Positions 12,179 through 53,460 of a stretch of DNA of 64,000 nt are shown here, one piece after another. Made by a program: the position numbers and the translations under genes. The stretch comes from Macrostomum lignano (lineage: Eukaryota), in NCBI GenBank assembly GCA_002269645.1, contig NIVC01000368.1:186001-250000 (forward strand), in the 5' to 3' direction. The notes beneath the pieces are model-generated. The model was not told the DNA's origin and did not search any database. It saw nothing but the letters and a program-made list of their open reading frames with translations. The first letter of the stretch is position 1. Every line of letters starts with the position of its first letter.

Positions 12179-12437
12179 AAAAGTGACCCCAGCCCACCTG
12201 CACCCCAGCAACCGCATACCAAAAGTGACCCCAGCCCACCTGCACCCCAGCAACCGCATACCAAAAGTGACCCCAGCCCACCTGCACCCCAGCAACCGCA
12301 TACCAAAAGTGACCCCAGCCCACCTGCACCCCAGCAACCACATACCAAAAGTGACCCCAGCCCACCTGCACCCCAGCAACCGCATACCAAAAGTGACCCC
12401 AGCCCACCTGCACCCCAGCAACCGCATACAAAAAGTG
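12179..12437. repeat. Minisatellite, 42-bp unit AAAAGTGACCCCAGCCCACCTGCACCCCAGCAACCGCATACC (~6 copies)
   Basis: Direct tandem copies. Confidence 0.97.
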
Positions 12438-12439
12438 CC

Positions 12440-12668
12440 GCAAGCCATCAGAGCTCAGCTGGAAGTCCGGATCGCGGAAACTCCCAGCTGCACCGGTGCC
12501 TCTCCACTTCACTCTGATCTCCTCCCGCTGCTCCGAGGCTCCGCCCAGCCAGTTCCCCGAGGGTCTCAGCGAGGCCTCCATGGAGTGGATTCGCCGATCA
12601 CCAGGCAGCGAAGCCGACAGACTGTTTGACTACCTGGCCTCGTGGCCTCGCGAGTTCCGGCAGGCGGG
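12440..12668 (+). other. Possible orphan coding exon
   Basis: GC-rich open frame (SEAPPSQFPEGLSEASMEWIRR...WPREFRQA) ending at a GG|GTGAG donor, flanked by minisatellites. Confidence 0.3.
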
Positions 12669-12717
12669 TGAGCCTAGTTAAATTAGTGGGTTTGTTGGCA
12701 ACGTCAGCAAATGTAAA

Positions 12718-12976
12718 CTGTTAGATACTGATGTCACCTGTTAGATACTGATGTCACCTGTTAGATACTGATGTCTCCTGTTAGATACTGATGTCACCTG
12801 TTAGATACTGATGTCACCTGTTAGATACTGATGTCACCTGTTAGATACTGATGTCACCTGTTAGATACTGATGTCTCCTGTTAGATACTGATGTCACCTG
12901 TTAGATACTGATGTCACCTGTTAGATACTGATGTCACCTGTTAGATACTGATGCCACCTGTTAGATACTGATGTCA
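12718..12976. repeat. Minisatellite, 20-bp unit CTGTTAGATACTGATGTCAC (~13 copies)
   Basis: Direct tandem copies. Confidence 0.97.
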
Positions 12977-13583
12977 AGTGTCGCTGGCAAACCTAAGCGG
13001 TCATTCGCCCTCCATTTGAGTTCAGCAATAGAAAAATCTTCAGTCAAAAGCATTTTTCTTCAAAATATTTGCCTCGCAGCTGCAAACTAAATTGAAAATC
13101 GTCAGAGAGCTCTGCTTGGCTTCCAAGCCTCAGCCCTGCCCTCCCTCCCCTCTCCATCTCTCTCCCCTTGTGTCTCAGCTGCCGCCCCTTCACCCCTGCC
13201 CACTGACAATGCACTTGCTATGCCGAGCACGCAGCGACAGTCAGCTCTCATTGTTTAACTCAGCAGAGCTCGCAGCATCCCACTGCTCCTGCATCTCTCA
13301 CCCCGCTGAGCAGAGCAGCTGCCGGACCCCCTGGCACCCAATCAGGCCTCAAACAGCCGCTGGGTCAGAGAAGAGAATCGGCCTCAGTCCATTTAAACAA
13401 ATTTCTCTGCACAGGGAGAGCTCAGAGATTTCAGTCCGTGACAACGGGACTTTTGCTGCTGCTGCTGAGCTGGCAGGCAAATTCGCTTGAAGAAGAGCAA
13501 AGCACTCAGTTTGAAGCCGTGTGGAACAGCTGCGGCAGACAGCAGATCGGCAGAGAAGCGCTGCTAGGAGAAGCAGTGTAGCC

Positions 13584-14434
13584 ATGGCAACAGAGATGGA
13601 GCGGAAGCTGAGAGCAGCGCTGGAGGCTGGAGACAGCGAGGAGCTGCAGCGACTGTGTCGTGAGGTCGGCAGAAACATCGAGCTGGAGGTGGGCAGCTTT
13701 GAACATACCTTACCGAAGGTTCGCCAAATGCCGCTGGTCCATCACGTGGCCTGCAAGCCGGTGAGTTCGTCGTGCCTGGAGCTGCTGATTAACAGATTCG
13801 GACCCAGCTGTCTGACACATAGAAATGACAGTGATCAGACTCCAGTGCACTTGGCAGCCCAGCATCAGGACGAGTCTTGGATGGAGCTGGTTAAAGAGAA
13901 GGGAGGCAGAGGCTGCTTGAGAATTGCCGATAGATGGGGACAGACAATCGCTCACTTTGCCGCTATGAACGGAAAAAGCAACTCTTGTCTGAAGTGGCTG
14001 GTGAAGGAGCTCGGCAGCGACTGTTTCACAGTTCCTGACGAAGACGGAGACACGGCCGTTCATTTGGCCGCTCAGCATCAGGGCATCGAGTCGCTGGAGA
14101 TGATCAAGAGACAGATCGGAACTGACTGCTTTCGGCTGAAAGGACTGTGTGATAGAACAGCATTTCACATTGCTGCTGAGAAGTCTGACAATTCAAATCT
14201 GAAGTGGCTGGTGAAGGAGGTCGGCAGCGACTGTCTCACAGTTCCTGACGAAGACGGTAACACGTCCGTCCATTTGGCTGCTCGGTGGCAGCCAGTCGAC
14301 TCTCTTCAGTTCATTTTTGACCAAATCGGAGCCGAAATGTTCAGCTTGAAGAACAACAAGGGCAAAACACCGGCTGATGAGATTTTTTGGTGCCGCACAG
14401 ACCAGTCAGCAAAGCGGGTATGGATTTCAGCTGG
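13584..14434 (+). CDS. Ankyrin-repeat/kinase gene, exon 1 (ankyrin repeats)
   Basis: Repeated DEDGDTAVHLAAQ, GQTIAHFAA, RTAFHIAA, GNTSVHLAA motifs; GTGAGT donor at 14435. Confidence 0.85.
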
Positions 14435-14939
14435 GTGAGTCCTGACTGAGAACTGCTGCCTGAACTGCTGCCTACTGGAAATATTGTTGGCGAAAAGTCA
14501 TTGAAATTCTCAGCAGCGCCACAGCCAAGCGAGGGCGTCACGAATTTGTTACGGCAGCTCCTCATGGCACCTCCACCCTCCCCAAAGCGCCCCACCCTCC
14601 CTATAATTGGCGCCCCGACCCCCATCCACAGATCAATTTGCAGGAGGAGCTACCATGAAGGAATAGTATGGATGGCTAATCTAGCCTACAATGAAGGACT
14701 TTAGCACAAAGACAGTTTAAGTGCCTGTCGTCATGGTGACCCATCAATATTTAACGATTGTGAAACTCTTCGACTTTTTGTATAAAACTGCTTGATTGGC
14801 TGAGATGACTTATTGGCGATAAGCCACCTGTAATGCAAAAACTAGCAAAGCCGGAAGTGACACGGTGATACTCAATATCCTGGGACTCTCATTTTCTCCG
14901 TTCTGAGCTCAAAAGAGCATGAGGTGGCAGTGACGCAAA

Positions 14940-15414
14940 AAGGTGGTGATGCAGAAGGGTGGTGACGCAGAAGGGTGGTGATGCAGAAGGGTGCAGTGAC
15001 GCAGAAGGGTGGTGACGCAGAAGGGTGGTGACACAGAAGGGTGGTGATGCAGAAGGGTGGTGATGCAGAAGGGTGGTGATGCAGAAGGGTGGTGATGCAG
15101 AAGGGTGGTGATGCAGAAGGGTGCAGTGACACAGAAGGGTGGTGATGCAGAAGGGTGCAGTGACGCAGAAGGGTGGTGATGCAGAAGGGTGGTGATGCAG
15201 AAGGGTGGTGATGCAGAAGGGTGCAGTGACGCAGAAGGGTGGTGATGCAGAAGGGTGGTGATGCAGAAGGGTGGTGATGCAGAAGGGTGGTGATGCAGAA
15301 GGGTGGTGATGCAGAAGGGTGGTGATGCAGAAGGGTGGTGATGCAGAAGGGTGCAGTGACGCAGAAGGGTGGTGACGCAGAAGGGTGCAGTGACGCAGAA
15401 GGGTGGTGACGCAG
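14940..15414. repeat. Intronic minisatellite, 16-bp unit GCAGAAGGGTGGTGAT
   Basis: About 29 copies; the last CAG (15412-15414) gives an in-frame acceptor. Confidence 0.95.
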
Positions 15415-15887
15415 AAGGCTGAGTGACTCCAAAGTACTCAGAAAGCCCCAAGCAACACAAAACTCATCGAATTCCTTCACATCATGTTTCAGCGCCAAGA
15501 AGCAGCTGGATCCCAGCTTCACCGACTGGGACTTCATCCTGCAGGACGACAAGAAGCAGCTCATCGGCCGTGGTGCCTTCGGCAAGGTGTTCAAGGCCCT
15601 CACAGACCGCAACCAGACGGTGGCTGTCAAAGTACTGCCTCTGTGCCAAGCTCAACAAGGGAAGAAATACCGAGGAACTGAAGAAAAAACTTCTGATAGA
15701 GAAGCGGGGAGTTGACATCATCAAGCGACTCTCGCATCCCAACATTGTGCAGTTCCTCAAGTGCGAGCAGAAGTCGGATGGGCTGTACATCTTCACCGAG
15801 CTGGTCTCGGGTCACAGCCTCTTTGAGCTGATGCAGCGTCAGAACAAGCCGTTCAAGGAGTCCGGGGTCAGGGACTTCTCCAGACAG
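15415..15887 (+). CDS. Ankyrin/kinase gene, exon 2 (kinase N-lobe), one frameshift near 15645
   Basis: IGRGAFGKVF and VAVK in one frame; LSHPNIVQF and IFTELV in the +1 frame; donor GTGCGT at 15888; exon start inferred from phase. Confidence 0.75.
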
Positions 15888-16068
15888 GTGCGTCTCTGAG
15901 TTCTCTAGGATTGCCTGACATGGGTGGGATCAGTGTGGGATCAGCGTGAGATCAGTGTGGGATTAGTATGGGATTAGTGTGGGATCAGGTATGGAGTCAG
16001 TGTGGGTGGGATCCAGAATGATTTTATGATTTTAACAATTTTATGACTCAGAACTTCTCAACCTGCAG

Positions 16069-16554
16069 ATCTGCTCAGGCCTGAACTTCCTGCACTGCCA
16101 GCCGCAGGGCGCCATCTTGCACCGTGATATCAAGAGCTCCAATGCGATGCTCACAAACGAGGGTGTCATCAAGCTGATCGACTTTGGTCTCGCCAAGGAG
16201 ATCGTCGGTACCTGCGGCCTGAGCACAGGCGTCGATCCCAAAGGCACCTGGCACTTCATGGCGCCCGAGCTGTTCATGGGCGAGGACGACTCGATTCCGT
16301 ACTCAGCCAAGACCGACGTGTGGGCCTTCGGCTGCACCGTGTATGAGCTGACGGCCATGCAGCCTCCTGACGCGAACGTTCCGCAAAGCAGGATCGGCGT
16401 TTTGAGGTGCGGAGGGCGGGCGATGCCTCGGATTTCGGACGGGTTCTCAGCCGGCCTGAAGGACTTCTACCTCAGGTGCGTAGACTATGACCCGAGGAAG
16501 CGAGCGGACACCGCGGAGCTGCTGCGGCACAGCTTCCTGAGTGCCTCATCGTGA
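16069..16554 (+). CDS. Ankyrin/kinase gene, exon 3 (STE/MAP3K-like C-lobe)
   Basis: [34 protein letters not shown]; acceptor CTGCAG ending 16068. Confidence 0.9.
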
Positions 16555-17099
16555 CTGCGAGAGCGACGGGCTGTGAGGGAGCGGAGCGACTCTTGAAGCG
16601 GGCGGCTTTGCTTGCCGACGTTGTCTGTTTTTGCTTTTCCGATTGCCCTTTTATTTATCTGATTGCATATTTTTAAATCAATTGTTTTTTGTTTATCCGC
16701 CTTTTTTGTTTGAATTGCTCAGAGTTTGAACTTAGAATTGTTTTGTCTATCAATTGTCTTGATTTGACTGCAGGGTTTGTTTTACCGGTTGCTCCTTTCA
16801 ATCAATGAGACATTTTTGTGCTGCCTCGAGTGCCATTTCAGTTTGAAGCTGATAAATGTTAATTTTGAAACTCTGGCACAAAGCCAGTCACAATTTCCCC
16901 AATATGCACAGACTGCTCAATGCCTACTCCATATTTTCTGTTGCCGAGAATTCTTCACATTTTTAGCCACCGGTTCGGCGCTTTTCCGGCTCTGATTTTT
17001 GTATTTGATTTTTGGACTGACTTTTTATTAGCAACTGTTGGAGCAGGAAGTCCAGTGCTTTCTCAAGAGTTCTCAGTTAAATAATAGAGACACCGTTTG

Positions 17100-17372
17100 G
17101 CTTGCCGTGACCCGCTGTGTCCTGACTTGCCGTGACCCGCTGTGTCCTGACTTGCCGTGACCCGCTGTGTCCTGACTTGCCGTGACCCGCTGTGTCCTGA
17201 CTTGCCGTGACCCGCTGTGTCCTGACTTGCCGTGACCCGCTGTGTCCTGACTTGCCGTGACCCGCTGTGTCCTGACTTGCCGTGACCCGCTGTGTCCTGA
17301 CTTGCCGTGACCCGCTGTGTCCTGACTTGCCGTGACACGCTGTGTCCTGACTTGCCGTGACCCGCTGTGTCC
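17100..17372. repeat. Minisatellite, 25-bp unit CTTGCCGTGACCCGCTGTGTCCTGA (~11 copies)
   Basis: Direct tandem copies. Confidence 0.97.
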
Positions 17373-17604
17373 CATTTCATATTTCAATATTTCGCAGCAT
17401 CATTTCTGAACCCCACTCAGTGCAATGCACAGAACAGGTGGGGAAGGCAGATCTGATGAAGCAGGCATGCAGTGAAGCTGGCCATTGTTTTCAAAGGGCT
17501 TGCAGTGTCATGAGGTCTGAGGCTGCCTCACGGCTCGGCCCCTCACGCAGTGAGCAGGAGATGTGCAGAGCCCTTAACTGCACAGACGCTGCAGAGCTGC
17601 TCCA

Positions 17605-20285: not shown

Positions 20286-21380
20286 GTAGCTATCCCAATG
20301 AACCAGTTTAATAACTCACTATGTTGTGTCACAGACTACTTTAAGTTCAGATCAGAGCCACGTGTTCAGGCTCCCAGACGCTTTACCCAGTTTATATTCG
20401 TTGTTACATGTATAATCTATGAAGGCTTTTCTCCGGAGGGGTGCATGACATGGATCGGCTATGCTATTGTTTCTGTTTGCGTTTCTGCAATTCTAAGTTT
20501 TCGTAGTTCTGTCAATGTGCTAAAGTGTTGCAACGGTTAAAAGTACTTTAAGTTAGTAGACAGGAGTGTAAGACAACTTTTTGGCTTTGTTAAATTTCTC
20601 CATGACCCAATCAATTATTTCCGCCCCCCAACCAAGGCTTCTGTCCTGCGGCATTTTGACTGACACCCGCAAGAACCTCAAACAGGTCAGGCGACTTTGA
20701 GCATGATGGGGCTGCCTGAATCTCGGTTGGATTCTGCTCAATGCTCATGCACTCCATCTCAGAGAGTCGTGCACCTGCTTTGGACTGCACCAAGTTGGTG
20801 GCCCTTTTCGTAGATACGTTTCTTAAAAAATCGAAATCAAGTTCAAATTAAGACAAACCAAACTTTTAAACTTTAACGCGGAATAAACTCAAGTCTGCTA
20901 ATTTTTTAATAATTTCAGCAGAAATAAACACCGTGTATCTGAAATTTGATAATTTATGCACATGCTGTAACTATTAAGAAAATGCAATTTCTTTTCCATT
21001 GGAAAATGCGACTGTAACTTTAAAGTACAAGTGCACTCATATTCAATTTTACAAGAACGTTAATAAATTTTACCGTAAATAAAACAAAACAGAGCACACA
21101 AAGCAGGGTTATTTTTAGAATAAAAAATGCAGAACGAAAAATTTGTTATAAATTTATCAAAGACATCCAAGTAAATAAGCATACTGCGTACATACTACTT
21201 ATTAGCATTTCTCGGTCAACAGTGCCCTAAAAATCCCAATTTCATTGTCCTTAATCCCATAATTGCAGAGTTGCCGTGCCATCATCCTTGTCCTTTAATA
21301 TGAATTGAATCCGAATTTCTGAACACTCTCCAGATTCAATTCTGATTAAAAAATCGACACCGACTCAGAGTCACAAATTG

Positions 21381-21852
21381 TGAGCACAGTTTAATCAACC
21401 CAAGCTTATTAAGCACAGTTTAACCAACTCAGGCTTACTCAGCACAATTCAACCAACTCAGGCTTACTGAGCACAGTTTAACCAACTCAGGCTTACTGAG
21501 CACAGTTTAACCAACTCAGGCTTACTCAGCACAATTCAACCAACTCAGGCTTACTGAGCACAGTTTAACCAACTCAGGCTTACTGAGCACAGTTTAACCA
21601 ACTCAGGCTTACTGAGCACAGTTTAACCAACTCAGGCTTACTGAGCACAGTTTAACCAACTCAGGCTTATTGAGCACAGTTTAACCAACTCAGGCTTACT
21701 GAGCACAGCTTAACCAACTCAGGCTTACTGAGCACAGCTTAACCAACTCAGTCTTACTGAGCACAGTTTAACCAACTCAGACTTATTGAGCACAGTTTAA
21801 CCAACTCAGGCTTACTCAGCACAATTCAACCAACTCAGGCTTATCAAGCACT
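21381..21852. repeat. Minisatellite, 29-bp unit GAGCACAGTTTAACCAACTCAGGCTTACT (~16 copies)
   Basis: Direct tandem copies just past the PALB2-like stop codon. Confidence 0.97.
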
Positions 21853-21868
21853 TGAACAACAGCTGCAG

Positions 21869-22671
21869 TCAGTCAATGCAAAGACACAAGCCGCTGTCAC
21901 CCGAAGCACACGGCAGCAGGCACAGCTGCATCGGGCAATGGTTCACCAGCAGCCGATGGAGCTGAGACGCCAGTCTCCAGCTGCAGCAATCGGACAGACA
22001 GGCGGACTGGAAGCCACAGCTGCCGTACTCCAACCGATGCAGCCTGCCGCTGTCTATGGCCAAGAGTCGGCCGGGTCGGAGACAAACCACATCTGCCCAC
22101 CGATGCAGCGGCTCAGACTCGCGGCTCAAGCGGAACCGGCTGATTAGACAGGTGCCAGACGGTAATGATTTATGATCATTACTGATTTTTGAGCACAGCA
22201 ACAAGACTTCGCTGTTGTCAGCCGACAGCAAGTGGCATAGCAACAATCGATCCTTGAGTCTGAACTCGCACCAAATGAGACAGCAGTCAGCAATGTGCTG
22301 CTCACTGCTGAATTCTTCGCAATAAATATTAATAACTGTGTCCGGCACTGACTGGACTTCAGCTGGCGCAGTCAGGCAGCAGTGGATTTGATGGCAGCGG
22401 CAGCACAGCCAGGCAATGCTGGATTCGAGTCCCGCAATTTTCAAACCCCTGTGCCTGCTGGGATCGCCTTGGATGCCATCGGCTCTGCACGAGACTGCAC
22501 AGCTGATCTGGCAGTTCAACAATCTTCGCTCAACAAAGCAGCAGTTCGCGTCCAGCAGCACCGCCTCTCCATCGCCCACGAGCCAGCCGAGTCCGCTTGA
22601 GGATGCAGAAATAACTGTAGAAGCTGTGGGGATAAAATCCACGCTGCTGCCACCTGACCAGGGAAGCGCGC
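21869..22671 (-). CDS. PALB2: PALB2-like gene, exon 2 (WD40-like propeller)
   Basis: LTAPAEVQSVPDTVI resembles recalled PALB2 LTFAEVQGMQEALL; C-terminal HRWADVVCLRPGRLLAIDSGRLHRLEY resembles the last PALB2 blade; phase-1 CAG acceptor at 22673-22672. Confidence 0.6.
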
Positions 22672-22704
22672 CTGCGGATTGGTGGGGCAAATGGTGGATT
22701 GTTA

Positions 22705-23778
22705 ACTATGGTAGCTTAATCTGGTATCTGGGAGGCTGGTAGCTTTATCTGGTATCTGGGAGGCTGGTAGCTTAATCTGGTATCTGAGAGGCTGGTAGCT
22801 TAATCTGGTATCTGGGAGGCTGGTAGCTTTATCTGGTATCTGGTAGGCTGGGAGCTTATTCTGGGGATCTGGGAGGCTGGGAGCTTAATCTGGGGATCTG
22901 GGAGGCTGGGAGCTTAATCTGGGGATCTGGGAGGCTGGGAGCTTAATCTGGGGATCTGGGAGGCTGGGAGCTTAATCTGGGGATCTGGAGGCTGGTAGCT
23001 TAATCTGGGGATCTGGGAGGCTGGGAGCTTAATCTGGGGATCTGGAGGCTGGTAGCTTAATCTGGGGATCTGGGAGGCTGGGAGCTTAATCTGGGGATCT
23101 GGGAGGCTGGGAGCTTAATCTGGGGATCTGGGAGGCTGGTAGCTTAATCTGGTATCTGGTATCTGGTAGGCTGGGAGCTTAATCTGGGGATCTGGGAGGC
23201 TGGGAGCTTATTCTGGGGATCTGGGAGGCTGGTAGCTTAATCTAGGGATCTGGGAGGCTGGGAGCTTAATCTGGGGATCTGGGAGGCTGGGAGCTTAATC
23301 TGGGGATCTGGGAGGCTGGGAGCTTAATCTGGGGATCTGGGAGGCTGGGAGCTTAATCTGGGGATCTGGAGGCTGGTAGCTTAATCTGGGGATCTGGGAG
23401 GCTGGGAGCTTAATCTGGGGATCTGGAGGCTGGTAGCTTAATCTGGGGATCTGGGAGGCTGGGAGCTTAATCTGGGGATCTGGGAGGCTGGGAGCTTAAT
23501 CTGGGGATCTGGGAGGCTGGTAGCTTAATCTGGTATCTGGTATCTGGTAGGCTGGGAGCTTAATCTGGGGATCTGGGAGGCTGGGAGCTTATTCTGGGGA
23601 TCTGGGAGGCTGGTAGCTTAATCTAGGGATCTGGGAGGCTGGGAGCTTAATCTGGGGATCTGGGAGGCTGGGAGCTTAATCTGGGGATCTGGGAGGCTGG
23701 GAGCTTAATCTGGGGATCTGGGAGGCTGGGAGCTTAATCTGGGGATCTGGGAGGCTGGGAGCTTAATCTGGGGATCTG
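22705..23778. repeat. Intronic minisatellite, 29-bp unit GGGAGCTTAATCTGGGGATCTGGGAGGCT (~36 copies)
   Basis: Fills almost the entire PALB2-like intron. Confidence 0.97.
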
Positions 23779-23799
23779 GTTATGGCGGCTGCAGCTCAC

Positions 23800-24505
23800 C
23801 CATCAGCTGCCAATGAGGCCAAGAATGGTCGCCAGTGTCGCAAGTGCCCAGCTCTGTCAGCATGAGAGCCACAGCCTGGGGATAAGCTACAGCCAGGAGG
23901 ATTCGCCCAGCAACAGCCCGGCAACACTTGGCAACAACGCATCGGCCCAGGCTGAGCTGTCGAACTCGATCACCGGCCAGCACGCTCACACAGTCCGCTC
24001 CGGTGTCCAGCACAACCACACTGCCGAACTCCTCGCTAGAAGTAGCGCACATGACTTCAGTCCTACCCTGGTCTTGGTTGCCATAACAACCGGGTGCCAA
24101 ACTGAGAGCCCGTATCTCGCAACAGGCGAAACAAGATTCTGCATCAACATCGACAGGATCTACCTGCTGGTTGCCATGGTAACTAACAGGCACTGTAGCC
24201 TGGCATCCCGGGTCAGTTTTATCCCGAATGGTGACGTCATTATCATCGCATTTGATTTCAAACAAATCGCCGCTTGTGTCCATTGGGATTATGACGTCAT
24301 CAGTTACTTGATCGATTACGTCATTCTCCTGATTAGATTTAGAAGTGGCCGCATCGGCAGAGGCCGCGTGTCCTTCGCTTCTTTCCAAAAGCCGCCGCTT
24401 TTTATGCAATTCTTTGGTCAACTGCTCGAGCTTAGCGGCCAGAGCGTCTTTGGCTTGGCGGCTGCTGCTGTTGCTGCTTTTGCTGCCACAAATGTTGGCA
24501 CTCAT
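23800..24505 (-). CDS. PALB2: PALB2-like gene, exon 1 (N-terminal coiled coil plus start of WD40)
   Basis: KDALAAKLEQLTKELHKKRRLLERSE aligns with recalled PALB2 [26 protein letters not shown]; ATG at 24505; G|GTGAG donor; spliced ORF is 502 aa. Confidence 0.6.
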
Positions 24506-27735: not shown

Positions 27736-28308
27736 CAAATCTCGAAATCATAATTCAATTAATTTTTACTAAGATTATAGATGAAATTAAACGAAGATTA
27801 ATAAGCTACCTCGCTCTGGTTAAATATCTTGATTGAATTTATAAATTATTCAATATAATTCAATTAAAAAGGTTTTTTGTTGGTTAATTCAGTTATTTTT
27901 ATCAGAAAAGTAATTTTTACATAGTTACACTCAAAGACAAATGATTTTTAATTTACAAATGCATTTTGAAGTGCAGATATTTCACTCACTGAGAAGGGTC
28001 AAAGGGACAATAAAAAAGTGTCAAACGAAATTGCTCCAGATTTCACAGTTAAACCTTACAACATGTTGGCAGCATAATTATTACTTAAATCGAACCATTT
28101 CCTTCTCATCAAGTCCGCTCACCAACATAATACTGCTAACAGCGGGAAAGCCCGCAGAAATGAGTGATACTAAAAATAACTACAGCATTCCGCTATTTCC
28201 AGCTGCGCAACCTTAGCCAATCCAGGAGAAGCGCTACTTTTGATTGAATTACATTGTTAACCATTTATTAGGCGCACAGAAACCGAGGACACCCGCAAGC
28301 TATCGGCA

Positions 28309-29289
28309 TTGGTCGCCCAGATGGAGGCGACGATCAAGACAGTGAACAACAGACCGCAACAGCCATGGAACAATCCACGCCAGCAAAGCGGAAACGCCGC
28401 GACAAGCTGCCAGTTATGTCACAAGCAGGGACATACGGCAGACAGGTGCTATCAGCGCAACCGACAGCAAGGCGCTAGCCCAGGAAGCAGCCGTCAACAG
28501 CCACAAGGAGCCAGAGGCACCAGCAGAAACTGCAACAATTGCGGTAAGCCTGGCCATTTGGCCGCTCAGTGCCGACGTTATTGTCACCATTGTAAGCAGA
28601 AGTCTCACTGGACAGTTGAATGCGACCGCCCGAGCCCCCAGAGACAGGGCCAACCGGCTCAGCGTCAAGGATACCCGAGCAACAGGAATAACGGCTATCA
28701 AGGTCCTCAGCACAATAACGGCTACCAAGGTCCTCAATACAACAACGGCCGACCAAATCAGCAACGGCAACCACGACAAATCGCGGAAGTAACCGAGGAA
28801 CAACCTCAGCAACAGCCACCGGCAGACATTCTAGCTGTGTCCACCCAGGAAGAAGAGAAAACAGCGGAACCAGTGGTGACTCGCGACGACATCATTCAAG
28901 CTCGACGACAGCTCCGCAAAGCAGCAAAGGTCAAGATTGGCTACAATATAGCGGTGACACCAACACCGCAACCACGGCAAACCGCAGAAGTAACCAAGGA
29001 GCAGCCTCAGCAACAGCCACCGACGGACACTCCAGCAGAGTCAACCAAGCAAGAAGAGACAGTTACGGAACCAGTGGTAACCCGCGACGACATCATTCAA
29101 GCCAGGCGACAACTTCGCAAGGCAGTCAAGGTCAAGATCGGCCACATCACGACGGCGACACCAACACCGCGCTCCGAGAGCGACCGGACTGAGAAGCAAG
29201 AGCGACCACGAAAGATCGAGAAATGTCCTGACACTGACGAGCCCAAGCCACAGATAGCGATTCGACAGCCGAGAACTACACCGACATGA
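28309..29289 (+). CDS. gag: Gag C-terminal part: three CCHC zinc knuckles and a duplicated 67-aa module
   Basis: CQLCHKQGHTADRC, CNNCGKPGHLAAQC, CHHCKQKSHWTVEC; ends at TGA 29287-29289. Confidence 0.9.
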   Translation: MVAQMEATIKTVNNRPQQPWNNPRQQSGNAATSCQLCHKQGHTADRCYQRNRQQGASPGSSRQQPQGARGTSRNCNNCGKPGHLAAQCRRYCHHCKQKSHWTVECDRPSPQRQGQPAQRQGYPSNRNNGYQGPQHNNGYQGPQYNNGRPNQQRQPRQIAEVTEEQPQQQPPADILAVSTQEEEKTAEPVVTRDDIIQARRQLRKAAKVKIGYNIAVTPTPQPRQTAEVTKEQPQQQPPTDTPAESTKQEETVTEPVVTRDDIIQARRQLRKAVKVKIGHITTATPTPRSESDRTEKQERPRKIEKCPDTDEPKPQIAIRQPRTTPT

Positions 29290-31209
29290 AGCCAAAGCCG
29301 ACGAACAGCCTCAACCACAGGATGGCTGCTGCGAATACTACTGCTCGCACTGTTCTGCACCGCGGCTGGCAACGCGACAACGGCACAGCACAGCAGCTAC
29401 GTGGACACACCGCTCTACTGCCCAGAAGCGAACAGCCTTCAAGCCTTCAAATTGCCTCCGGACATCGAATGCACAGTCCCGAGTAGCATTCAACAGCATC
29501 GGCAACCGATCAACATCACAGTCTACAAGGAGAACCAGGTATCACACCGGTCTACACTGAAGATATGTTACCGAGAGACCTACACGTTCACGAGTAAGCC
29601 AAAAGATTCCGCTCTTAACCGTCTTTCAACGGAGATGGTAAGTCCAGCCATGACTGTTACTGTGCAACAACATTCAGTTTCGAAGGACGATTGTAAAACA
29701 TGGGAAGAAAACACCCGAACCCAAGATGGGACGTTAGAACCAGGAGCTAAAACTATGGGACAAGCCAAACGATTCATTACCCATAAGTGGACAACCCAGG
29801 AATTGGAACCTACAGCCAGCACAGCTCAAACCTTTACTCAAACAGTGTCAGTCCTAATCACCCAGGTCTCATTCTTTGTGGAAGAGAAAAAGATGTCTTC
29901 GTTAGCCCTCCCTATAGGTCAATGCGACTACAAGACAGGAACCTGTACCACGACTACTAGCCTCACGGCAGAGAAGGACTCGCCACTGAACCGACAGGCA
30001 CCAGACAGACTCTGGGCCGTAATGGAATACTATGATCTCAGCTACACAGTGAGAGGAGATAGACAATACCGCCTAGTATGGACACCCAGCGCAGAAATAG
30101 ACTGCCCCTATCAAACAGACAGATTCATTCAAGGCAAAATTCACACTGGATGGTTCATGTCTAACGACGCTACGTTTGCCCTCACATTCAAACACCCACC
30201 TCAGACTAAGGACTTAAAATGTGGAGACACGACAGTAAAGCTATACAAGTCGGAACAAGGTAAACTAGTCCAGGTGCACGGCTCAGACCAAGAGTTTCGC
30301 AGCATAATTGAAGGCTCATTTAACAATTCAAGCACTGCTAAGAGACCAAAACGAGACCTCACATCGGACACAACGCTAGCAGCAAAATTACAAGGGCTAG
30401 AACTCACAATGGAAGACAGAATAGGCGACCTTACTCGAAACATGATACTACAACAATGCAAGCATCAGCAAACACTGTTTCGGTACATAAAAGATCTCTT
30501 TCTCATGCAGCCCACCCTAGCAGCGCGCACTTTGTTCAAAGACAGCCAATTAAAAGCCACCACGCTAGCACAGCATGTAGTCATTTCTAAGTGTCTACCC
30601 ATCAGAAACTTTCGTTTTCACCAACCAAGATGGGATGAGAATATCTGCTTTACCAAACCACCAATTGCCTTCACTATATTCAACATGAACCACACAGGCT
30701 TTCTAGATATCAGAACCCTGGAAGTCCAAAAGGAACACCCGCCGTTTCACGATTGTTCTAACCAAACGTCGTATTTTCTACCAAAAGGAGACGAAATCTA
30801 CAAAACAGACCTCAACTTTACGAAATTTACTGTGCAAACGGTCACTAAGCTAGAAAGAGAAGCGTGGGGGGTAACCCTCATAAAACCCCCAGAGATTCAG
30901 CATGTCATATTCACTCCTGATGGAGACATCAGGATAGCCGATCTCAAAAGCCCTGTCACAGTACACGACCTGTACAACCAGCTAAGTGACCAGAGAGAGT
31001 TCTTAAGAACTGTTTTCAAACTGCCCAAGTCAGAAACCTCTCACTCTATACATCTTCCACCGTTAGATGCCACCATAGCGGAAGGCACCTTTGATCCAGC
31101 AAGTTGGCTACCATGGCTAGGCATGCGAGTGAATCTTTTCGATATCGCTGTAGGAGTAGCTGCCATTGGATTCTACATATATCTTTTATACCAAATGATC
31201 CTTATCTGC
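29290..31209 (+). CDS. env: Env-like class III (gB/chuvirus G-like) fusion glycoprotein region of the polyprotein
   Basis: Signal-like WLLRILLLALFCTAAG (29323-29370); N-glycosylation sequons NIT, NNS, NHT, NQT, NFT; furin site RPKR (30343-30354); gB-like helix AAKLQ...QCKHQQ...QPTLAARTL...ATTLAQHVVISKC; TM 31144-31209. Confidence 0.8.
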
Positions 31210-31499
31210 CACAGACTCAACAAACAAAAGTACCAACGTCCTGGCATCCGCACGATCCAGCGCAAAGCTGCTGCAAAGCAAGAACAGCAGGAGCTACAGG
31301 AGTTAAGAGCACCGCTAGTAACGAACTCGACAAGCCAGAACACGCGGCAGGAGACCACGACAACCAGACAGGCACCACAGCGCCCGCCACCGTGGACGCC
31401 ACCAGCACCAGCATCAACAGGACTCTACCCGAAGATAGAGTCCAGTTGGCCACCTCCGATGGTGGCGACGATCAACAACGGCCAGAAGCAGAAGTACAC

Positions 31500-34400
31500 A
31501 ATCACCCGACTTCAAGTGGGAACGCGATCCTGCCGAGCCCTGATCGACAGTGGAGCCGAACGATCCTTAATCGACGAAACCACAGCAAAGCGATACGGCA
31601 AGACCTTCAAGCCGGCCACAGTTGAACTGCAAGGAGTACAAGGCTCACGACTACAGCAATCCGGCATGATCAACCTCCCTGTGGAAGCTGGCGACACCAC
31701 GGCTGACGTTGAGTTCCATGTTATTCCTAATTTGAGTTCAGGAACTTATCAAGTCTTATTAGGCATCGATTACTTATCTCAACTAAATCAGGGCGTGCTC
31801 GTAAACTATCAGCAACAGAATATCCATCTCAACGGAAAATGCTATGACATCCTCGCTATCACTACAAAAGAACCCGTTAACTGCATCAGATTAGTCTCTA
31901 CAGTCAATCTCAATCCATGGGAAACAACTCGAATTTCCGCAAGAGCCATCGCCAGAGAGAAACTACCTCCAGCTATGCTTTTCGAACCCAACGAACGTAT
32001 CCTGGAGAAGAAACCCATTTGCCTTACACCCGAATTGGTATACCCTGACGAGTCAGGAGAGGTTCAAGTCATCATTTCAAACGAATCGGCAACCCCAATG
32101 ACACTATATCCAGACACCAACATAGGATCTTTCGATACAGAAATCCAAGCCTTTGAAATTGCTGAAATCCAGTCAGAAACCCCAACAATGACGGAACAAG
32201 AATTCAAGAACGCCATTGATCTCAAAGGATCCAACCTGACAGAATCCCAGAAAGAACAGCTCATTAAGGTTCTCTGGGACAACAAGAAAGCCTTTTGCCT
32301 ATCCGAGGAGGAAATAGGATACACAGATGTAGCGAAACACGAGCTTCACATTAAGCCTAACGTGGAGATTAAGCTCAACAAACGATACCCAATCCCATAC
32401 CAACTCACGGGAGAACTCCAGAAGATCATCGATAGAATGGAAATGCAAGGAATTCTTAGAAAAGCAGCCACCCCGTACATCTCACCAATTCTACTGGTCA
32501 AGAAGAAACCGGAATCGCCTCAAGCCAAACCAGTGTACCGTCTCTGTGTTGATTTTCGGGACCTCAACCAAATCCTGGTCCCAGAAAGGCAATGTATGCC
32601 CCGAATCCCAGACCTCTTAGCCAAATTAAAGGGATCAGAATATTTCACTACTCTCGACATGGCGCAAGCATTTTTTCAAGTGGCGCTAGAAGAAGAAAGT
32701 CAGAAGTATTGTGGCATCTCCACGCCCGACGGACAAACTTACGTCTTCACCAGAGCCCCAATGGGTCTACAAACCTCACCAGCAGCCCTCTCTAGAGCAG
32801 CTAGCTTAATCCTTCAAGGGATTAACAGAGTCTCAACATACGTAGACGACCTACTTGTCTTCAATGAGACATTTGAAGACCATCTCGAGACATTGAAAGC
32901 TACACTAGAAGCTCTAGGAAAGTACGGCATGAAATTGAAATTACAAAAGTGCAAATTCGCTAAGCCCACAATCACATTCCTAGGACATAAGATAGACAAA
33001 AATGGAATACAGATTGATAGAGCTTTAGTCGACAAAGTGCAGAAGGTACCAAAGCCACAAAATGTCACACAGCTCAGATGTTTCCTAGGACTCTGCAATT
33101 TCTTTCGCAAACACGTACCTAACTACGCCAAGAAAGCCAAGCCACTCACAGACCTGCTTAAGGGCACACCGAACACTAAGGCTCAAGCATCCAAAACCCC
33201 ACTAAAGTGGACAGAAGAAGCGACCCAGACCTTTGAAGACATGAAAAAATGGATAGCAGAAGATCTCAGGCTCACTCACCCTGACTTTAATAAACAGTTC
33301 ATTGTCTCCAGCGACGCTTCTACAAAAGGCATAGGCGCAATGCTCTCACAGAAAGATGAGACAGGAAAAGAAAAACCAATAGCATTCACGAGTCGACAAC
33401 TGAGAGAGGCAGAGACAAGATATGCGGTCACCCATTTAGAACTCTTAGCCGTCTTTTACGCATTCAAGACATTCGAACAATTTCTGTACGCAGCGCAAAT
33501 ACCCACATTGCTAAGAATAGATCATGCACCACTCAGAGGTCTACTCACAGGGAAAACCCTGCGGAACAATCAAGTACTCAGATGGCTTCTATATTTACAA
33601 CAGTTTCAAATGCAAATTGAGTACGTCCCAGGCGCATCCACCAAACACGCAGTCCCAGATGCACTCTCAAGACTATATGAGGACCAAGAGACACCCATTA
33701 ACTTTGTCACGATCAAGCACCCGATACCACACCTGCAAGCCTTAAAAGAGGCTCAAGCAGAAGACCCATTCTGCCAAGGCATTCGAGCACTATGGGAACA
33801 AAAGCCCATGGATGACAGCTTAGCTATGAGATACAAAAGACACATCCAGCGACATCTATCGGACTATGCGGACATTCACGGAATCATCCACAGGACAGCA
33901 GATCACACCCAACAAATAGTGCTCCCATTCAAGTACCGTGAAACAATCTGCCACTCGTTACATGCACTACCACTAGCAGCGCATTTAGGCTTTGACAAAA
34001 CCCTAGAAAGAATTAGGCGACACTATTTTTGGATCTCAATGGTTTCCGATATTCGAACCTTTTGTCAAGACTGCATGGATTGCGCTAAGAACAAATCTGG
34101 CCAACTGCATAAGGGACTCATCCAAATGCCTGAAATTCCGATGAAACCAATGGACAAGCTATCAGTAGACCTAGTAGGACCCATGGTCCCCACGAAAATC
34201 CGGAACGAGACCGTCACCCACATCCTGACTATCCTGTGTTGTTTTTCAAAATTCGCCTTTGCATTCCCGATTCCAGATCTATCAGCAGAAACCACAGCCG
34301 AAACTTTGTTCCAAGTCTTCTGTACGTTTGGAATCCCGATGGAAATTTCCACCGATAATGGAAAAAATTTCACGGCATCGCTATTAGCTGAAGCTCTAGA

Positions 34401-35160
34401 AATTCTGGGAGTCAAGCACATCTTCTCGTCTACCTACCATCCGCAAGCAAACCACGTAGAGAGACTACACTCTACCCTACATAACATGCTTAGACATTAC
34501 ACTGCGGAGAATCCAAACGAATGGCATAAATATCTATCAGCCACAATCTACGCCTACAATACAGCCAAGCAATCCTCTTCAACCTATTCTCCCTTCGAAT
34601 TGGTTTTCGCGAGGAAACCCCTGATGCCCACAGAGCTCACAACTCAGCTGAACCTAGTAAGATACATGGATGAGCCGTCCTACGCAGCCCGAATGCAAGA
34701 AGCTATCACCCTGGCTAGAGACATAGCCAGACACCATCTCAAAGTGGCCCAGGAAAAGAACACAAGCAGAGCTAACAAAAACCGAATGGCCCCTACATTA
34801 GCCATAGGCACCAGAGTGATGCTACAGATCCCAATGAGACAGGGAAAGCATCAAGCCAAGTTCACGGGTCCATACGAAATTGTGAAAAGAAATAGTGCCA
34901 CGTCCGTAATGATAAGGAAAATTGACGATCCGACTCAAGAACCCTTTCAGGTGCACACGGACAGGCTAAAGCCAATAGCATCGCCAACACCCAAGGTACT
35001 GCTCCCCGATCTGCGCCCGAGTGATCCGCGAAGACTGCAACGCCAACACAGGCAACTGTTCAGCAAGGAAGTGGGCGTACAAGCTGATGACGAGACGCTC
35101 GCGGACACAGTTCGAAAGAAGTACAATCTGAGGAGCAAACCCATACTCCTAGACAAATGA
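31500..35160 (+). CDS. pol: Pol region (aspartic protease, RT, RNase H, integrase), in frame with env
   Basis: ALIDSGA (D at 31546), LDMAQAFFQV, YVDDLL (32839), SDAS, LHALPLAAHLG..CQDC, SVDLVGP, STDNG, HVERLH, YNLR; no stop from 29290 to 35157. Confidence 0.95.
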
Positions 35161-35319: not shown

Positions 35320-36102
35320 ATGTATGACCGACAGCTCGATACGCTAGATGACTGTACCCTGGGAGACGAAGATACCCAGACACCGTGTCCTATAGTTCGA
35401 CCTCTCTTCAAGCCAACATCTCACACCGAAACCGATGACCCTAAGTGGCCCGAGCAAGATATGTCAACATGGACAGAACAACAGCTGGACAAGCTACGAC
35501 AGGAATGGCAACGACGCCGACCTACGCTCCCACGACAAGCAAGCACGGCAACATCGGCGAGCAACGATTTCCACCAGGCTAAAACACTCGCAGAGCGATT
35601 CCAAACAGCTCTGGCGGCACAGACGGTAGTTCAAAGCAAGCCGGCGCGGTATGATGAAACGAAACTGTTTGACATTCACCAGCAGATGCTTGACATGCCA
35701 CTAATACCCGCTAACATCGTCACACACCTTACTACGCGACGCATCCTGTCAGATCCTAAAGACCCACGCTGGTTACTCTCTGACTATTCTATCTTGAACT
35801 TCAACACGACGCTCTTTTTCCTCTACGACGACACAGCTGCGTTCTCTTGTCTCCGTATCATAGTATGGAACAGCAGGGTGACGACAACCCTAATCCATCC
35901 TCGTGGACCGACCAGCACACTATCACTCCAAGCCGACATGCTTATCACTTATCTACTCAACACCTTAAATTATCACGGCATCGAAATCAAACCCAAGGAA
36001 CGGCAATCGATAGCCACGATTGCGTATTCACCGGCCAACCTACAATGGCACCACCTTTTCACAGCGTTGAAAGCAGCAGAAGGCCCCAACCTGGACCCTT
36101 GA
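35320..36102 (+). CDS. Accessory ORF3 of element B (260 aa), unknown function
   Basis: ATG immediately follows a polypyrimidine/CCAG acceptor (35318-35319). Confidence 0.7.
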   Translation: MYDRQLDTLDDCTLGDEDTQTPCPIVRPLFKPTSHTETDDPKWPEQDMSTWTEQQLDKLRQEWQRRRPTLPRQASTATSASNDFHQAKTLAERFQTALAAQTVVQSKPARYDETKLFDIHQQMLDMPLIPANIVTHLTTRRILSDPKDPRWLLSDYSILNFNTTLFFLYDDTAAFSCLRIIVWNSRVTTTLIHPRGPTSTLSLQADMLITYLLNTLNYHGIEIKPKERQSIATIAYSPANLQWHHLFTALKAAEGPNLDP

Positions 36103-37226
36103 GGTGCTAGGAAGGCCCGGTTGCAAGAGAACAAAAAGGATAATACAAGGGATGAAATACTGCCCTAGGGTTGTAGCGAATTGGTGGGATACCAATCCGC
36201 CTCATCCCTGAGGCACCTTCACCCACAGGTACGCTCCTTTGTTCAATGCAGCCTCACAGCAGGGCGGTCTACTCTTGGGATAAGACTAGACCAAACGAAA
36301 GTGAATTTTTGAAGCCAGCTACAACGCTATATAATCTAACACTAACCACATTAACCCGGAAACAAACTGTATCCACAAATATTCCTTATTCTGATAATTT
36401 TTGTACCTGAATTTTATCTCTCGATATATCCACCATGTTACGCTTTACTCTCAACGCCGTGATATTCCACGCCCTCCGACACTTATATTAGACCATTTAA
36501 CGACTGCACACTAACGTTTTACTGCCTTCTGCAGATTTCTAACATCTTATATCTTACTATAGCAGAAAACACACCGATAACAGATGAATTAAATCCTTGT
36601 TAGCACAAGGATTTCGAAAAAAGGGGGAATCATATAAGAGTTAGAAATCTGAAGTTTTGACCCTAAGTTAGAAGATAGGTAGAAATTTATGAAAAGCCCA
36701 GGCGCAGTGAAGGGCGAGGCAGAAGAGTACAATGGAACCCCTAGATAGCTATTAGAAAGGCGAACAGAAGCAGCGTTAAGATAATTAATCAACTGTCAAG
36801 TCAATTTGAATAGCCGAATCTAACAAAGCCTCTTTCCATTCCAGTTAGTAGCGTCACCCCGCCGCAGGCACAATGGCGACTAAACCGGCCGGGAAAAGCA
36901 AACTAAGCAGCAGCCTGACTTAGAGAACAACGCGGCACGCGGCATCTTCTGGCGCACCCTGAGGGAGAAAACGTGAGGCCCACCTACAGACTCCTACCCA
37001 ACCCGAAGCTGCCCGAGAAGGCCAGATCAACCCCAAGCTGCTTGACAACCGAGAGAAACAGAGGACTGTTTAACCATTCATGGACAGAGTGTAGAGACGG
37101 AAAACTAAGCACTTTTTCTATAATCTTTCTATCCCAAATTTTATCCAACTCAACACATAGATTTGCGAAAGCCCGAATAATCTCTAACCTTCACACTTAG
37201 CAACCAACTAGAACTAACTAAATTCA

Positions 37227-37750
37227 TGTACAATTAGGGGACTGAGTCCCAGTTTGTTATTGCTCAAAACCCCCCGCCGTTGCTAACAACGCGAAGACAC
37301 CCCACCGGCGGCGGGGGAGGCCAAACATGCTAATTGGTACAAATAGACGCTCATCTCAAACTGGAGCGGCGCCTCGTTTTTTTCCTGCGCAGTTTCGATC
37401 TTGAATTGCTCCATTTGAATTAGCTTCTGGATTATCCGGTTGGCAGAAACCAGAGTCTCAAATCGATTATTTGCCTTAACTATTGCGTAAAACGAATACT
37501 AGACAGAATCGAACTCAGCTTAGATACTAGGATATCCCGTCAGTTTATACGGTCTTCTCTGACGGCCTGATAGGAGAGACTAAGAGCTGTAAGAACCTTA
37601 GACCGCTAGACATCTATCTTAAGAAAGTGAGAACACGAACTCAAAGGCCCCAGAGAAAGACTCGTATACTAGCTAAGTAGTGGCGCCATTATACGCTCGT
37701 ACAAACATAAATATGGCGAATAGGTTTTAGCAAATTAATAAGAACATACA
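37227..37750. repeat. Candidate LTR of element B
   Basis: TGTA...TACA termini on a GC-balanced segment before AT-rich flank; no plus-strand PPT seen. Confidence 0.35.
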
Positions 37751-49281: not shown

Positions 49282-49767
49282 TGGGTCCATGAGAATTGCC
49301 CGCAGACTTATTGCCCGCCGAGATTTGCCCGCAGGAGATTTGCCCGTGGAGATTTGCCCGCCGAGCTTTTCCCGCGGAGATTTGCCCGCAGTGCATTTTG
49401 CCCGTGAGCGAATTGCCCGTGGAGATTTGCCCGCCGAGAATTGCCCGCCGAGATTTGCCCGCAGTGCAATTTTCCCGCGAGTGAATTGCCCGCGAGCGAA
49501 TTGCCCGCCGAGTTTTTTCCCGCCGAGGTTTGCCCGCAATGCTTTTTTCCTGCAGCGCATTTAGCCACGCGTCAGATTTTGTCTGCATTGCCTTCCCAAT
49601 GCTTTGTACGTGTTAATCTCAATAAAGAGATTTACACGATCAAAACGTTTTGATAGTAACTGCATATCAAATGCATATTTTGGGGGGAGCAATGTAGACA
49701 GAATCTAGCTGCCAAATGCGCTGCAAAAAAGCATTGCAGGCAAACCTCGGCGGGAAAAAACTCGGAA
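49282..49767. repeat. TTGCCCGC-motif cluster with a partial inverted copy (MULE/foldback-like terminus)
   Basis: About 20 TTGCCCG motifs at 49290-49540; 49509-49563 is inverted at 49714-49767. Confidence 0.5.
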
Positions 49768-51359
49768 AATAAATATAGTATTTATAAACGTTTAAAGATT
49801 TTCCTAACTCAGTTAATTTTACATCCTTGAAACACGTTCACTTAGTGTATTTTTGTTCCAAAAATTATTTTTTATACATTATCGTTTTTTGACCCGGACA
49901 TATCACAAAAATTCGGATATCGCAAAGCAAACCTTAGTTTTTCGGCCGGATATATTTCAACCTGCTTGTGACTTCCGGGGGACGGAGACTGGAAGCACCC
50001 CGGAGAACGTAAAGCAGCCTGAGATATCCGGGCCGGATTACAGCTTTAAGATGCTTGAATATCCGGGGGAGATCCAGAAAGTACTTGTACTATCTGGGCG
50101 GACAACACAAGACACGGATATCCGAAAGTATAACACCGGTCTCACGCATACATGTACGTAGCTCAGAACCGCGTACTTCCAGGAACTTAGAAATCAGTAT
50201 TTCCCGGCCTGCATTCATGGTTGTAGTACATGGTTGTAGAAAAGATCGGATGCAAAATAAAGTACATAATATGCATTTATAGATGATCAGTAATTTAATT
50301 TGTGTTCAAATTTATTGTCAGTCTGTTAAATATAATTTCTTTCTAAAAGTTCATATTAAAGAGACAACAAAGAAGATGGTAAATTAAGGTTTTTGTCCGT
50401 AATTTAAACGAATTAATACTGTTACTGCAGACATTGGATGACAAGGGAATGCATATGAATAAGAGCAGTAAATAAAGTTGAGAGAAGTAAATTATTTAAA
50501 ACGTAGGTTACTTCTTTTCAATATAAGTTACATGCATGAGTCATTTAAGAAGCCTGTACGAGGGTATATACCGTATATGTTGTCGGACGAGCAACGAATG
50601 TCGAGAGCATTTAGACAAAAAAATGGGCAATTTAAAACACTTACTTTTTATAGTCGTTTAAATATAAAAAATAGCGAATATTAACAAATTAAATTTCATC
50701 CATTTTTCATCGTATAGTACAATTGGAACCAACCAGTGTTTTTTTAAGTTGCATAATTTATAAATAATAAAGTTGGTCTTGAGCACCTCAACTCATCGAT
50801 TTCGATCACTCCAGCGTGTCCAGGAATTCAAAAGCTTGCAGAGCTGAAATTCGTGTGAAAAGTTACAGGTTCGCTGAAACTTTTATAATCCAATTTTAAT
50901 TTATTAGTAAAATAGTAGACCTTGAGCTTATAAATTTAAATTTTTTAAATGTTGCACAAAAGTTTAATCACGCGACCAAACGCGGAAGATCGCGTAATTA
51001 AAATTAGCTCGTATTGTAAATGTAATAAAAGTCACGTGACTAAACGAATCCCAATCGCACGCCGGTAGTGGGTATCCCTCTATCCAAAAATAGAAACATA
51101 GAAACCATATAGAGGGAAATCCCATAGTGATAAAGCAATCTGAACCACGGGTCGGCAAACTCCACATGCGGCGCCCGCGAAGCCTCGGCCCTCTATCCGG
51201 CCCTCGGGTCTCTTCTCAGCTCTCTCCTCTCCTCTCGCCTCTACTCTTTTCTCCTCTATTTCCTCGCCTCTCCTGTCTCCTATTTCTCTTCTCTCTTCTC
51301 TATGCCAAATAATTTACATGTAAAATGTGACTGCATGATGCCTGTCTATAGTTGCTACG

Positions 51360-51373
51360 GTTGCTATGGCAAC
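51360..51373. promoter_or_regulatory. RFX X-box GTTGCTATGGCAAC with adjacent CCAAT
   Basis: Consensus match. Confidence 0.45.
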
Positions 51374-51420
51374 CAATCCAAAATAGAGAACTCAACAAAA
51401 ACTTATACTAGAATTCTCAC

Positions 51421-53296: not shown

Positions 53297-53363
<67 letters not shown>

Positions 53364-53396
53364 GTCAGTATGTCAGTCAGTCAGTCAGTCAGTCAG

Positions 53397-53431
<35 letters not shown>

Positions 53432-53460
53432 GTCAGTATGTCAGTCAGTCAGTCAGTCAG

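Follow-up and report, generated by a model that had tools for sequence, protein, structure and literature searches.

How does a retroelement bring its enzymes into the capsid when a membrane protein separates Gag from Pol in the same chain? This puzzle is posed by an element of Macrostomum lignano lying in a window of 64,000 nucleotides (the whole stretch analysed: positions 186,001 to 250,000 of the forward strand of contig NIVC01000368.1, assembly GCA_002269645.1; coordinates below are those of the window). In the open reading frame (ORF) listing, a plus-strand frame of 1,956 amino acids (aa) at 29290-35160 holds an envelope protein (Env), a linker, protease (PR), reverse transcriptase (RT), RNase H (RH) and integrase (IN). 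Pfam matches put protease, RT, RNase H and integrase in its second half, which is the Ty3/gypsy order, with a weak match to Monjiviricetes fusion proteins in the first half and a zinc knuckle in the frame immediately upstream; the named homologues matched by PR-RT include gypsy-type proteins. Judged by its sequence, the element is of the Ty3/gypsy type, with gag-env-pol order and an Env resembling herpesvirus glycoprotein B (gB). Here we report that the linker between the Env transmembrane helix (TM) and the protease is enriched in all three classes of late-domain motifs, well above chance, and that synthesis of Pol probably takes place on the cytosolic face of Env, next to these motifs of the type that recruits ESCRT (endosomal sorting complexes required for transport).

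Gag, Env and Pol in one reading frame

In related elements of the genome, Gag, Env and Pol form a single ORF. An Env search of the genome was followed by scoring of 69 of the 299 candidates, of which 16 belong to frames free of stops over 2,370-2,866 aa. The order was always CCHC zinc knuckle, hydrophobic segment, Env, TM, protease and RT in all stretches examined, which come from several families. Ten families, grouped by eye, were counted, with Env identities to the window copy from about 24% to 71% (excluding the tenth, which is motif-less). In the window copy itself, the separation of Gag from the downstream parts, attributed to signal peptidase by an initial annotation of the sequence, is due to a TGA. 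As this TGA is a sense codon in 4/4 sisters, it represents a break of the window copy. The window copy is thus defective, and the mechanism proposed below concerns its family. The TGA at 29287 was also considered as a site of programmed readthrough, a reading that was rejected because the stop is absent from all four sisters.

The gag-env-pol gene order itself is already published. According to the accessible text of Chary and Hayashi (eLife 2026, PMC13524379), which covers 1,512 elements, this order with a gB-type Env occurs in Nematoda, Bryozoa and Platyhelminthes, with ectodomains that have either a signal peptide on one side and a TM on the other or a TM on both; Sacco et al. 2022 (J Gen Virol 103:1739, PMID 35550022) are credited there for nematode elements with Env before pol. 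The present element resembles these errantiviruses in its Ty3/gypsy pol, its gB-type Env, its multiple copies and its flanking long terminal repeats (LTRs), and it has both Env between gag and pol and the arrangement signal/TM, ectodomain, TM. It differs in what is treated here: the accessible main text of PMC13524379 does not deal with the TM-protease linker or the packaging of Pol, and contains 0 occurrences of "late domain", "ESCRT", "budding", "polyprotein", "fused" and "splic". An element with a gB-type Env behind pol was sought as a control and was not found, all elements with a readable order having Env before Pol, with the exception of two rows with an extra upstream protease-profile match. 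No relative was detected in viral contigs, and word-indexed protein searches gave 0 matches with the Env-linker and 2 with the Env profile.

The Env ectodomain matched Pfam PF24664 with an E-value of 2.8e-6, just below the cut-off. Searched by sequence, Env had no match among solved structures, and the relationship to gB emerged from the fold search alone: when the first 609 aa were modelled with AlphaFold2 (alignment of 7 sequences, mean pLDDT of 57), all the Foldseek matches listed were herpesvirus gB, with a best E-value of 3.8e-18 and 10-13% identity. As modelled, the ectodomain is a gB-like class III fold. It shares this fold and the PF24664 match with herpesvirus gB and the Monjiviricetes (chuvirus-type) fusion proteins, and differs from them in its low identity to gB and in that those are stand-alone type I proteins with no enzymes on their tails. 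In two families (L053, L075, L068, L069) the ectodomain is around 230-270 aa longer, with the insertion near the furin-type site.

The ectodomain is flanked by two hydrophobic stretches. The first, at 29314-29370 by hydropathy, has -3/-1 small-residue sites directly behind it and, in 8 families, the anatomy of a signal sequence, with a basic n-region, a hydrophobic core of about 12-16 aa and a small-residue c-region. The second includes the strongest hydrophobic 19-mer of the frame, starting at 31150, and one TM helix of this kind was present in all genome families examined. The net charge in the window copy is +5 in the 15 aa after the TM and 0 before it, and the values in 8/8 genome families are +1 to +5 after and 0 to +1 before. 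These eight families also have 4-8 sequons each in the ectodomain, and seven of them a -3/-1 site. Outside homologues were collected by a profile search (374 proteins at E <= 0.001, 150 of them listed, from which the counts are drawn). In 43 of those listed, a single ORF contains both a zinc knuckle and the Env N-terminus, two rows near the genome's families being left out; a 12-aa hydrophobic core stands just before Env in all 43, followed in 42 by a -3/-1 site, under a small-residue rule that is permissive. A protease match was found behind Env in 48 listed homologues, 35 of which showed a TM of at least 1.6 plus D[ST]G (the 13 dropped were 5 in which no D[ST]G was found, 6 with a TM of 1.40-1.54 and 2 without TM).

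With one membrane entry and one exit, Gag and Pol would face the cytosol and Env the lumen. The topology predicted by the initial annotation is consistent with both the positive-inside bias and the signal-like core kept in 43/43 homologues, and we consider a two-pass membrane insertion of the Gag-Env-Pol chain very probable and signal cleavage behind the internal signal segment likely. The cleavage had been expected near 29370-29390, where the hydrophobic segment and suitable -3/-1 sites are indeed present, but the annotation's free Gag does not follow from it, as Gag would stay anchored by the signal. In the window family no in-frame Met exists in the approximately 320 codons before the signal segment, so Env cannot start independently without splicing.

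Late-domain motifs behind the Env transmembrane helix

As shown in Table 1, the TM, the basic stretch, PPPWTPPAP, LYPKI and the protease DSG are located as the initial annotation had claimed. The linker is 72-100 aa long and scarcely alignable between clades. In spite of this, [LIM]YPx[LI] was found in 7 of 8 families, P[TS]AP in 7, PPxY in 2 and at least one motif in all 8, against 0.54 in shuffles, none of which reached the observed count (0/5000); the four most distant of the eight have motifs in 4/4. A ninth, degraded family carries PSAP and LYPTI, so that any motif is present in 9 of the 10 families and [LIM]YPx[LI] in 8. From the composition of the window ORF, LYPx[LI] would be expected by chance 0.003 times per 110-aa stretch and 0.06 times per whole ORF, although conservation between families is the more stringent test. 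P[TS]AP and PPxY are textbook patterns; YPx[LI] was widened after inspection of the genome's families, and only the outside sets test it fairly.

The motif order varies by clade, being PSAP then YPxI, PTAP then YPKI, or YPSI, PTAP and PPxY, and the motif classes replace each other between clades, with two of them overlapping as PTAPPTY in the homologue P0008. In four sister pairs, 7/38 motif codons had an amino-acid change vs 129/283 elsewhere in the TM-linker region (p 0.0014), and 15/38 motif codons were changed silently; the motif columns were set on the first sequence of each pair, which makes this test partly the same observation again. The motif region, presumably flexible and cytosolic, is conserved in comparison with its surroundings. 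These data support the proposal that LYPKI is a LYPxL-like late motif, since it is conserved across families and canonical P[TS]AP and PPxY occur in the same linker elsewhere; loss of the TM and linker motifs among homologues had been named as the observation that would speak against the proposal, and both are kept across families. LYPKI fits the pattern with Ile in the last place. The Pro-rich segment, also considered late-domain-like, aligns with PSAP in sister families, which fit canonically, but in the window family itself it reads PPAP and does not fit.

Outside the genome, motifs were present in 10 of 32 linkers (P0002 and P0003, close to the genome's families, and P0150, with no linker, were left out), vs 1.03 in shuffles (0/3000 reaching the count). 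PTAP accounted for 4, PPxY for 7 and YPx[LI] for 2, the latter being reached in 26/3000 shuffles, and each class is enriched. Permuted decoy motifs of the same letters gave 0-2 among the 32. The motif rates in linkers were 0.67, 1.35 and 2.36 per 1,000 residues, vs 0.05, 0.10 and 0.02 elsewhere in these proteins. Further tails, many of them shortened, had motifs in 12/54 vs around 2 expected; when these were split, the counts were 3/14 (0.57 in shuffles) and 9/40 (1.39 in shuffles, 0/1000 reaching it). By comparison, the Gag-side spacer of the homologues, from the nucleocapsid (NC) to the signal, had motifs in 2/42 vs 1.15 in shuffles, and Gag-Pol proteins devoid of env in 0/21, a comparison of low power in which 43/64 were dropped and a few had a misplaced catalytic Asp. 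A quick Env tree groups eight genome families with P0008 in one clade, all 9/9 of which have motifs, and the neighbouring group has them in 7/13. The motifs are therefore strong in some lineages and not universal.

Candidate cleavage sites accompany the motifs. A Trp-Pro pair lies 31-40 aa before the protease Asp in all 12 ORFs compared and in the ninth family, and is absent from the tenth. A hydrophobic-x-small-hydrophobic word (IRTI, IRAI, VNAI) was noticed around 10 aa after the TM in the window (about 31243-31260) and in several families. In murine leukaemia virus the R peptide is produced by a protease clip of the Env tail, and the IRTI-type word could mark a clip of the same kind. Many homologous ORFs (P0006, P0032, P0039, P0057, P0059, P0122 and others) stop 60-120 aa past the TM, close to the expected start of the protease and in several cases right after a late motif; they could be Gag-Env proteins with Pol in another frame, or cut contigs.

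Proposed route of assembly and its alternatives

Retroviral late domains lie on Gag, as PTAP and YPXnL in p6 of human immunodeficiency virus (HIV-1), YPXL in equine infectious anaemia virus and PPXY in Rous sarcoma virus, and those of HIV lie immediately before the protease. The motifs described here belong to the same three classes, and differ in being placed behind the Env TM, in frame with Pol, where their function is putative. The three classes, often several per protein, and their partners are given in the accessible text of PMC10159163, which also mentions a tentative YPTI-ALIX link in yellow fever virus. The host genome encodes ALIX, with the KFY segment of the V domain, and a TSG101 UEV domain; the ALIX segment is conserved around the V-domain phenylalanine, F676. 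ALIX-like genes and TSG101-like genes were each seen on three contigs (G000 C3039, C2509 and C1209; C629, C1162 and C1163).

We propose that Gag-Env-Pol would be translated as one chain that crosses the membrane of the endoplasmic reticulum twice. The internal signal after Gag would send the gB-like ectodomain to the luminal side, and the Env TM would return the chain to the cytosol, where, as we strongly infer, PR-RT-RH-IN would be made as the end of the Env tail. A putative signal peptidase cut behind the signal would yield two membrane proteins in 1:1 amounts, a signal-anchored Gag and an Env-TM-linker-Pol. Pol would then enter the particle by sharing the membrane patch of Gag assembly, and not as a soluble Gag-Pol. 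P[TS]AP, YPx[LI] and PPxY would recruit TSG101, ALIX and NEDD4-type ligases, and hence ESCRT-III, pinching off an enveloped particle, and the viral protease would afterwards free the enzymes. In this scheme the linker would act as p6 does in HIV, likewise standing immediately ahead of the protease, but attached to Env. That the motifs are real ESCRT-pathway ligands seems to us a good likelihood; that they are used in particle scission and that Pol is tethered until then, taken jointly, is evenly balanced, and we favour the combination of tail-borne late domains and Env-tethered Pol with moderate confidence.

Several observations weigh against this proposal. The tenth family has no canonical motif, and in the window family PPAP replaces the P[TS]AP seen in 8 of the other 9. 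The genome's families form one clade, so that 9/10 does not amount to ten independent events, and canonical motifs are missing from 22/32 outside homologues and 42/54 further tails; the tree group with three named nematode proteins has them in 2/18. In the genome's families the Gag-side spacer carries motifs in 3/7 (0.47 in shuffles, 12/1000 reaching it), so Gag may carry some late motifs too, and the Env tail would not be their sole site. Topology and cleavage rest on hydropathy and on the permissive -3/-1 rule. From general retrovirology, equal amounts of Gag and Pol are awkward for an ordered maturation, and so are protease domains held close by an Env trimer.

With the same topology, the motifs could instead sort or remove Env, through YxxPhi endocytosis or through ubiquitin and ESCRT to multivesicular bodies or exosomes, with no particle scission. 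YPx[LI] fits YxxPhi as well, PPxY and PSAP are usual in the tails of ESCRT-sorted cellular membrane proteins, and many relatives of the element manage without motifs. ESCRT motifs on GRA14, a membrane protein of Toxoplasma, serve vesicle uptake (accessible text of PMC10159163). We nevertheless regard Env sorting as an unlikely sole function, given that the Pro after the Tyr and the hydrophobic residue before it are retained without being required by YxxPhi, and that three late classes co-occur, substitute for each other between clades and overlap in P0008.

The tethering of Pol could also be brief, either because the protease, brought together by Env trimers, cuts early or because some chains escape the signal and remain in the cytosol; contacts with RNA or Gag would then serve to package Pol, as in foamy viruses, and cytosolic particles would retrotranspose, while the motifs may still act in budding. 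The conserved Trp-Pro and the post-TM word could be protease sites for this purpose, but such sites are required in the tethered model as well. The signal sits 500-700 aa inside the chain, where it might be missed, and yet its core is kept in 43/43 homologues. Finally, the 99.9% identical LTR pairs of sister copies reflect recent germline insertion, for which budding is unnecessary. On balance a brief tether appears doubtful to us.

Removal of Env by splicing or recoding, giving an ordinary Gag-Pol and leaving the fused reading minor or unused, is improbable. The NC region has two GTAAG donor-like sites, and one acceptor-like site lies at 31214, but frame arithmetic shows that their joining would be out of frame with Pol. 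Four of the 24 listed runs were compared with 8.5 kb of a sister copy, beginning ahead of the 5' LTR and reaching RT: three presumed RNA runs (X4, X9 and X6, a label that is a guess) from three studies, and one unlabelled. No joint inside gag, env or linker was found in 4/4 runs, in contigs that limit only abundant splicing and conceal rare forms, which are dropped, and in each run a single contig spans Env, TM and protease. The possibility raised by the initial annotation, that transcripts splice env out, thus finds no env-skipping joint in the contigs of the three presumed RNA runs. No slippery heptamer common to the 8 families was found in the linker or before Env, nor a conserved frameshift signal, and the window family has no Met with which Env could start separately. 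That the motifs are chance words is very improbable, since even if the linker is Pro-rich and PPxY decoys reach 2/32, shuffles that keep the composition never reached the counts (0/5000 and 0/3000, and 0/1000 for the 40 further tails).

Among known systems, foamy viruses come close to the tethered scheme, as their Pol is not packaged as Gag-Pol and their budding depends on an Env with a long retained signal segment, which are likenesses to what is proposed here. They differ in that Pol is made from its own spliced RNA, that PSAP is on Gag, that Env is of another class and that Env and Pol are not covalently linked. The nematode elements known as NERV reportedly have one continuous gag-env-pro-pol ORF plus an extra small ORF, and the genome's families share such a single ORF. 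Their likeness extends to Env before pol, as credited to Sacco et al. in the accessible text of PMC13524379; they differ in that the three named nematode homologues (P0090, P0056, P0141) lie apart from the genome's families, in another part of the quick Env tree, a comparison made with these three proteins. No report of late domains in gB-type GAG-ENV-POL elements was found in a literature that was mostly non-subscription and did not cover Sacco 2022; a late-domain-bearing Env tail that also carries Pol appears to be undescribed.

For the formation of infectious particles by invertebrate gypsy elements with a gB-type Env, intact Env genes have been the main argument so far, and the roughly tenfold motif enrichment behind the Env TM, with the class varying by clade, provides separate evidence for selection on ESCRT use. 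The route by which Pol enters would add a third one beside Gag-Pol fusion and the separate Pol of foamy type, and bears on how Env capture makes a virus of a retrotransposon. It is a tentative suggestion on our part that a lineage of animal retroelements builds enveloped particles entirely from membrane-anchored parts of one polyprotein. If so, the capsid would be held by a C-terminal signal, with the enzymes and the ESCRT-recruiting late domains on the tail of a gB-like fusogen, and Env would be required for both budding and enzyme packaging at a fixed 1:1:1 ratio. Assembly would then resemble that from the polyproteins of flaviviruses or togaviruses more than that of any retrovirus described, and the motifs would provide the first indication at sequence level of gB-type elements leaving cells.

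The window copy and its surroundings

The features of the window copy are collected in Table 1. This copy lacks the 5' part of gag and the 5' LTR, both carried by sister copies, has a gap before its 3' LTR and retains this LTR only. Four other copies exist in the genome at 99% identity over a 1-kb query. In the three sister copies with both LTRs in the stretches examined, the LTR pairs are 99.9% identical and flanked by 5-bp duplications, which indicates recent insertion; LTR pair, primer site, purine tract and target-site duplication are all present.

Table 1. Features of the element in the window copy, with the evidence for each
Feature	Positions	Strand	Evidence
Gag remnant: zinc-knuckle NC and Gln/Pro/Thr-rich spacer	28278..29286	+	Pfam zf-CCHC, E 8e-5; sister copies align from 28278
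Copy-specific stop TGA between gag and signal segment	29287..29289	+	Sense codon in 4/4 sister copies
Internal signal-sequence-like segment	29314..29385	+	Hydropathy; cleavage putative
gB-like (class III) Env ectodomain, with N-glycosylation sequons and RPKR furin-type site (30343-30354)	29386..31143	+	Pfam, AlphaFold2/Foldseek
Single Env transmembrane helix	31144..31209	+	Hydropathy 1.99 over 19 aa
Basic juxtamembrane stretch and predicted helical segment, positive-inside	31210..31308	+	Charge; helicity predicted from sequence only
Pro-rich PPPWTPPAP; PPAP aligned to PSAP of two sister families	31384..31410	+	Motif scan, family alignment
LYPKI, YPx[LI] late-domain-like (ALIX-type) motif; fits YxxPhi too	31423..31437	+	Motif scan
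Trp-Pro pair, candidate N-terminal protease cut site	31447..31452	+	31-40 aa before protease Asp
Aspartic protease, DSG at 31546	31501..31788	+	Pfam RVP, gag-asp_proteas, Asp_protease_2
Reverse transcriptase and RNase H	32503..33606	+	Pfam RVT_1, RT_RNaseH, RT_RNaseH_2
Integrase: zinc, core and C-terminal part	33925..34974	+	Pfam Integrase_H2C2, rve, weak Integrase_p58_C
Extra 260-aa ORF behind pol	35320..36102	+	Same-length ORF in 4/4 sister copies
3' LTR after purine tract; ends TATA...TATA, not TG...CA	36633..37668	+	Matches both LTRs of sister copies

The extra ORF behind pol gave only a weak Pfam match under the cut-off, with no family match and no usable Atlas match. It is also seen in L016-L019, and ORFs of around 260-270 aa occur in two other stretches (L068:8267-9073; L020:4719-5537). 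LTRs with TATA ends, as in the window, were found in L011, L013, L014, L016, L018 and L019 too, with a primer site starting with TGG two bases inside them. The LTR depth is many times the body depth in run X15 (L014:1943-2979), which points to many solo LTRs; in run X6 the two depths are equal, with a ratio near 1, and a single contig continues from the body round into the LTR. These depth ratios are only a hint. Many element copies occur as identical pairs, and since the assembly may be redundant or partly polyploid the copy counts are soft. At L055:2278-3993, a 572-aa ORF joins the signal and the first half of Env to the integrase C-terminal domain, as expected of an internally deleted element.

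Within the window, the Gag spacer contains a 200-bp internal duplication (around 80% identical, at 28764-29170), each unit of which has IAEV/TAEV and IAVT-like words as candidate protease sites. Minisatellite arrays with periods of 8-65 bp are dense at 7965-9031, 12137-17422, 21294-23925 and 49310-63672, and positions 1-4000 show a strong A-over-T skew resembling that of the element body, which may correspond to another retroelement.

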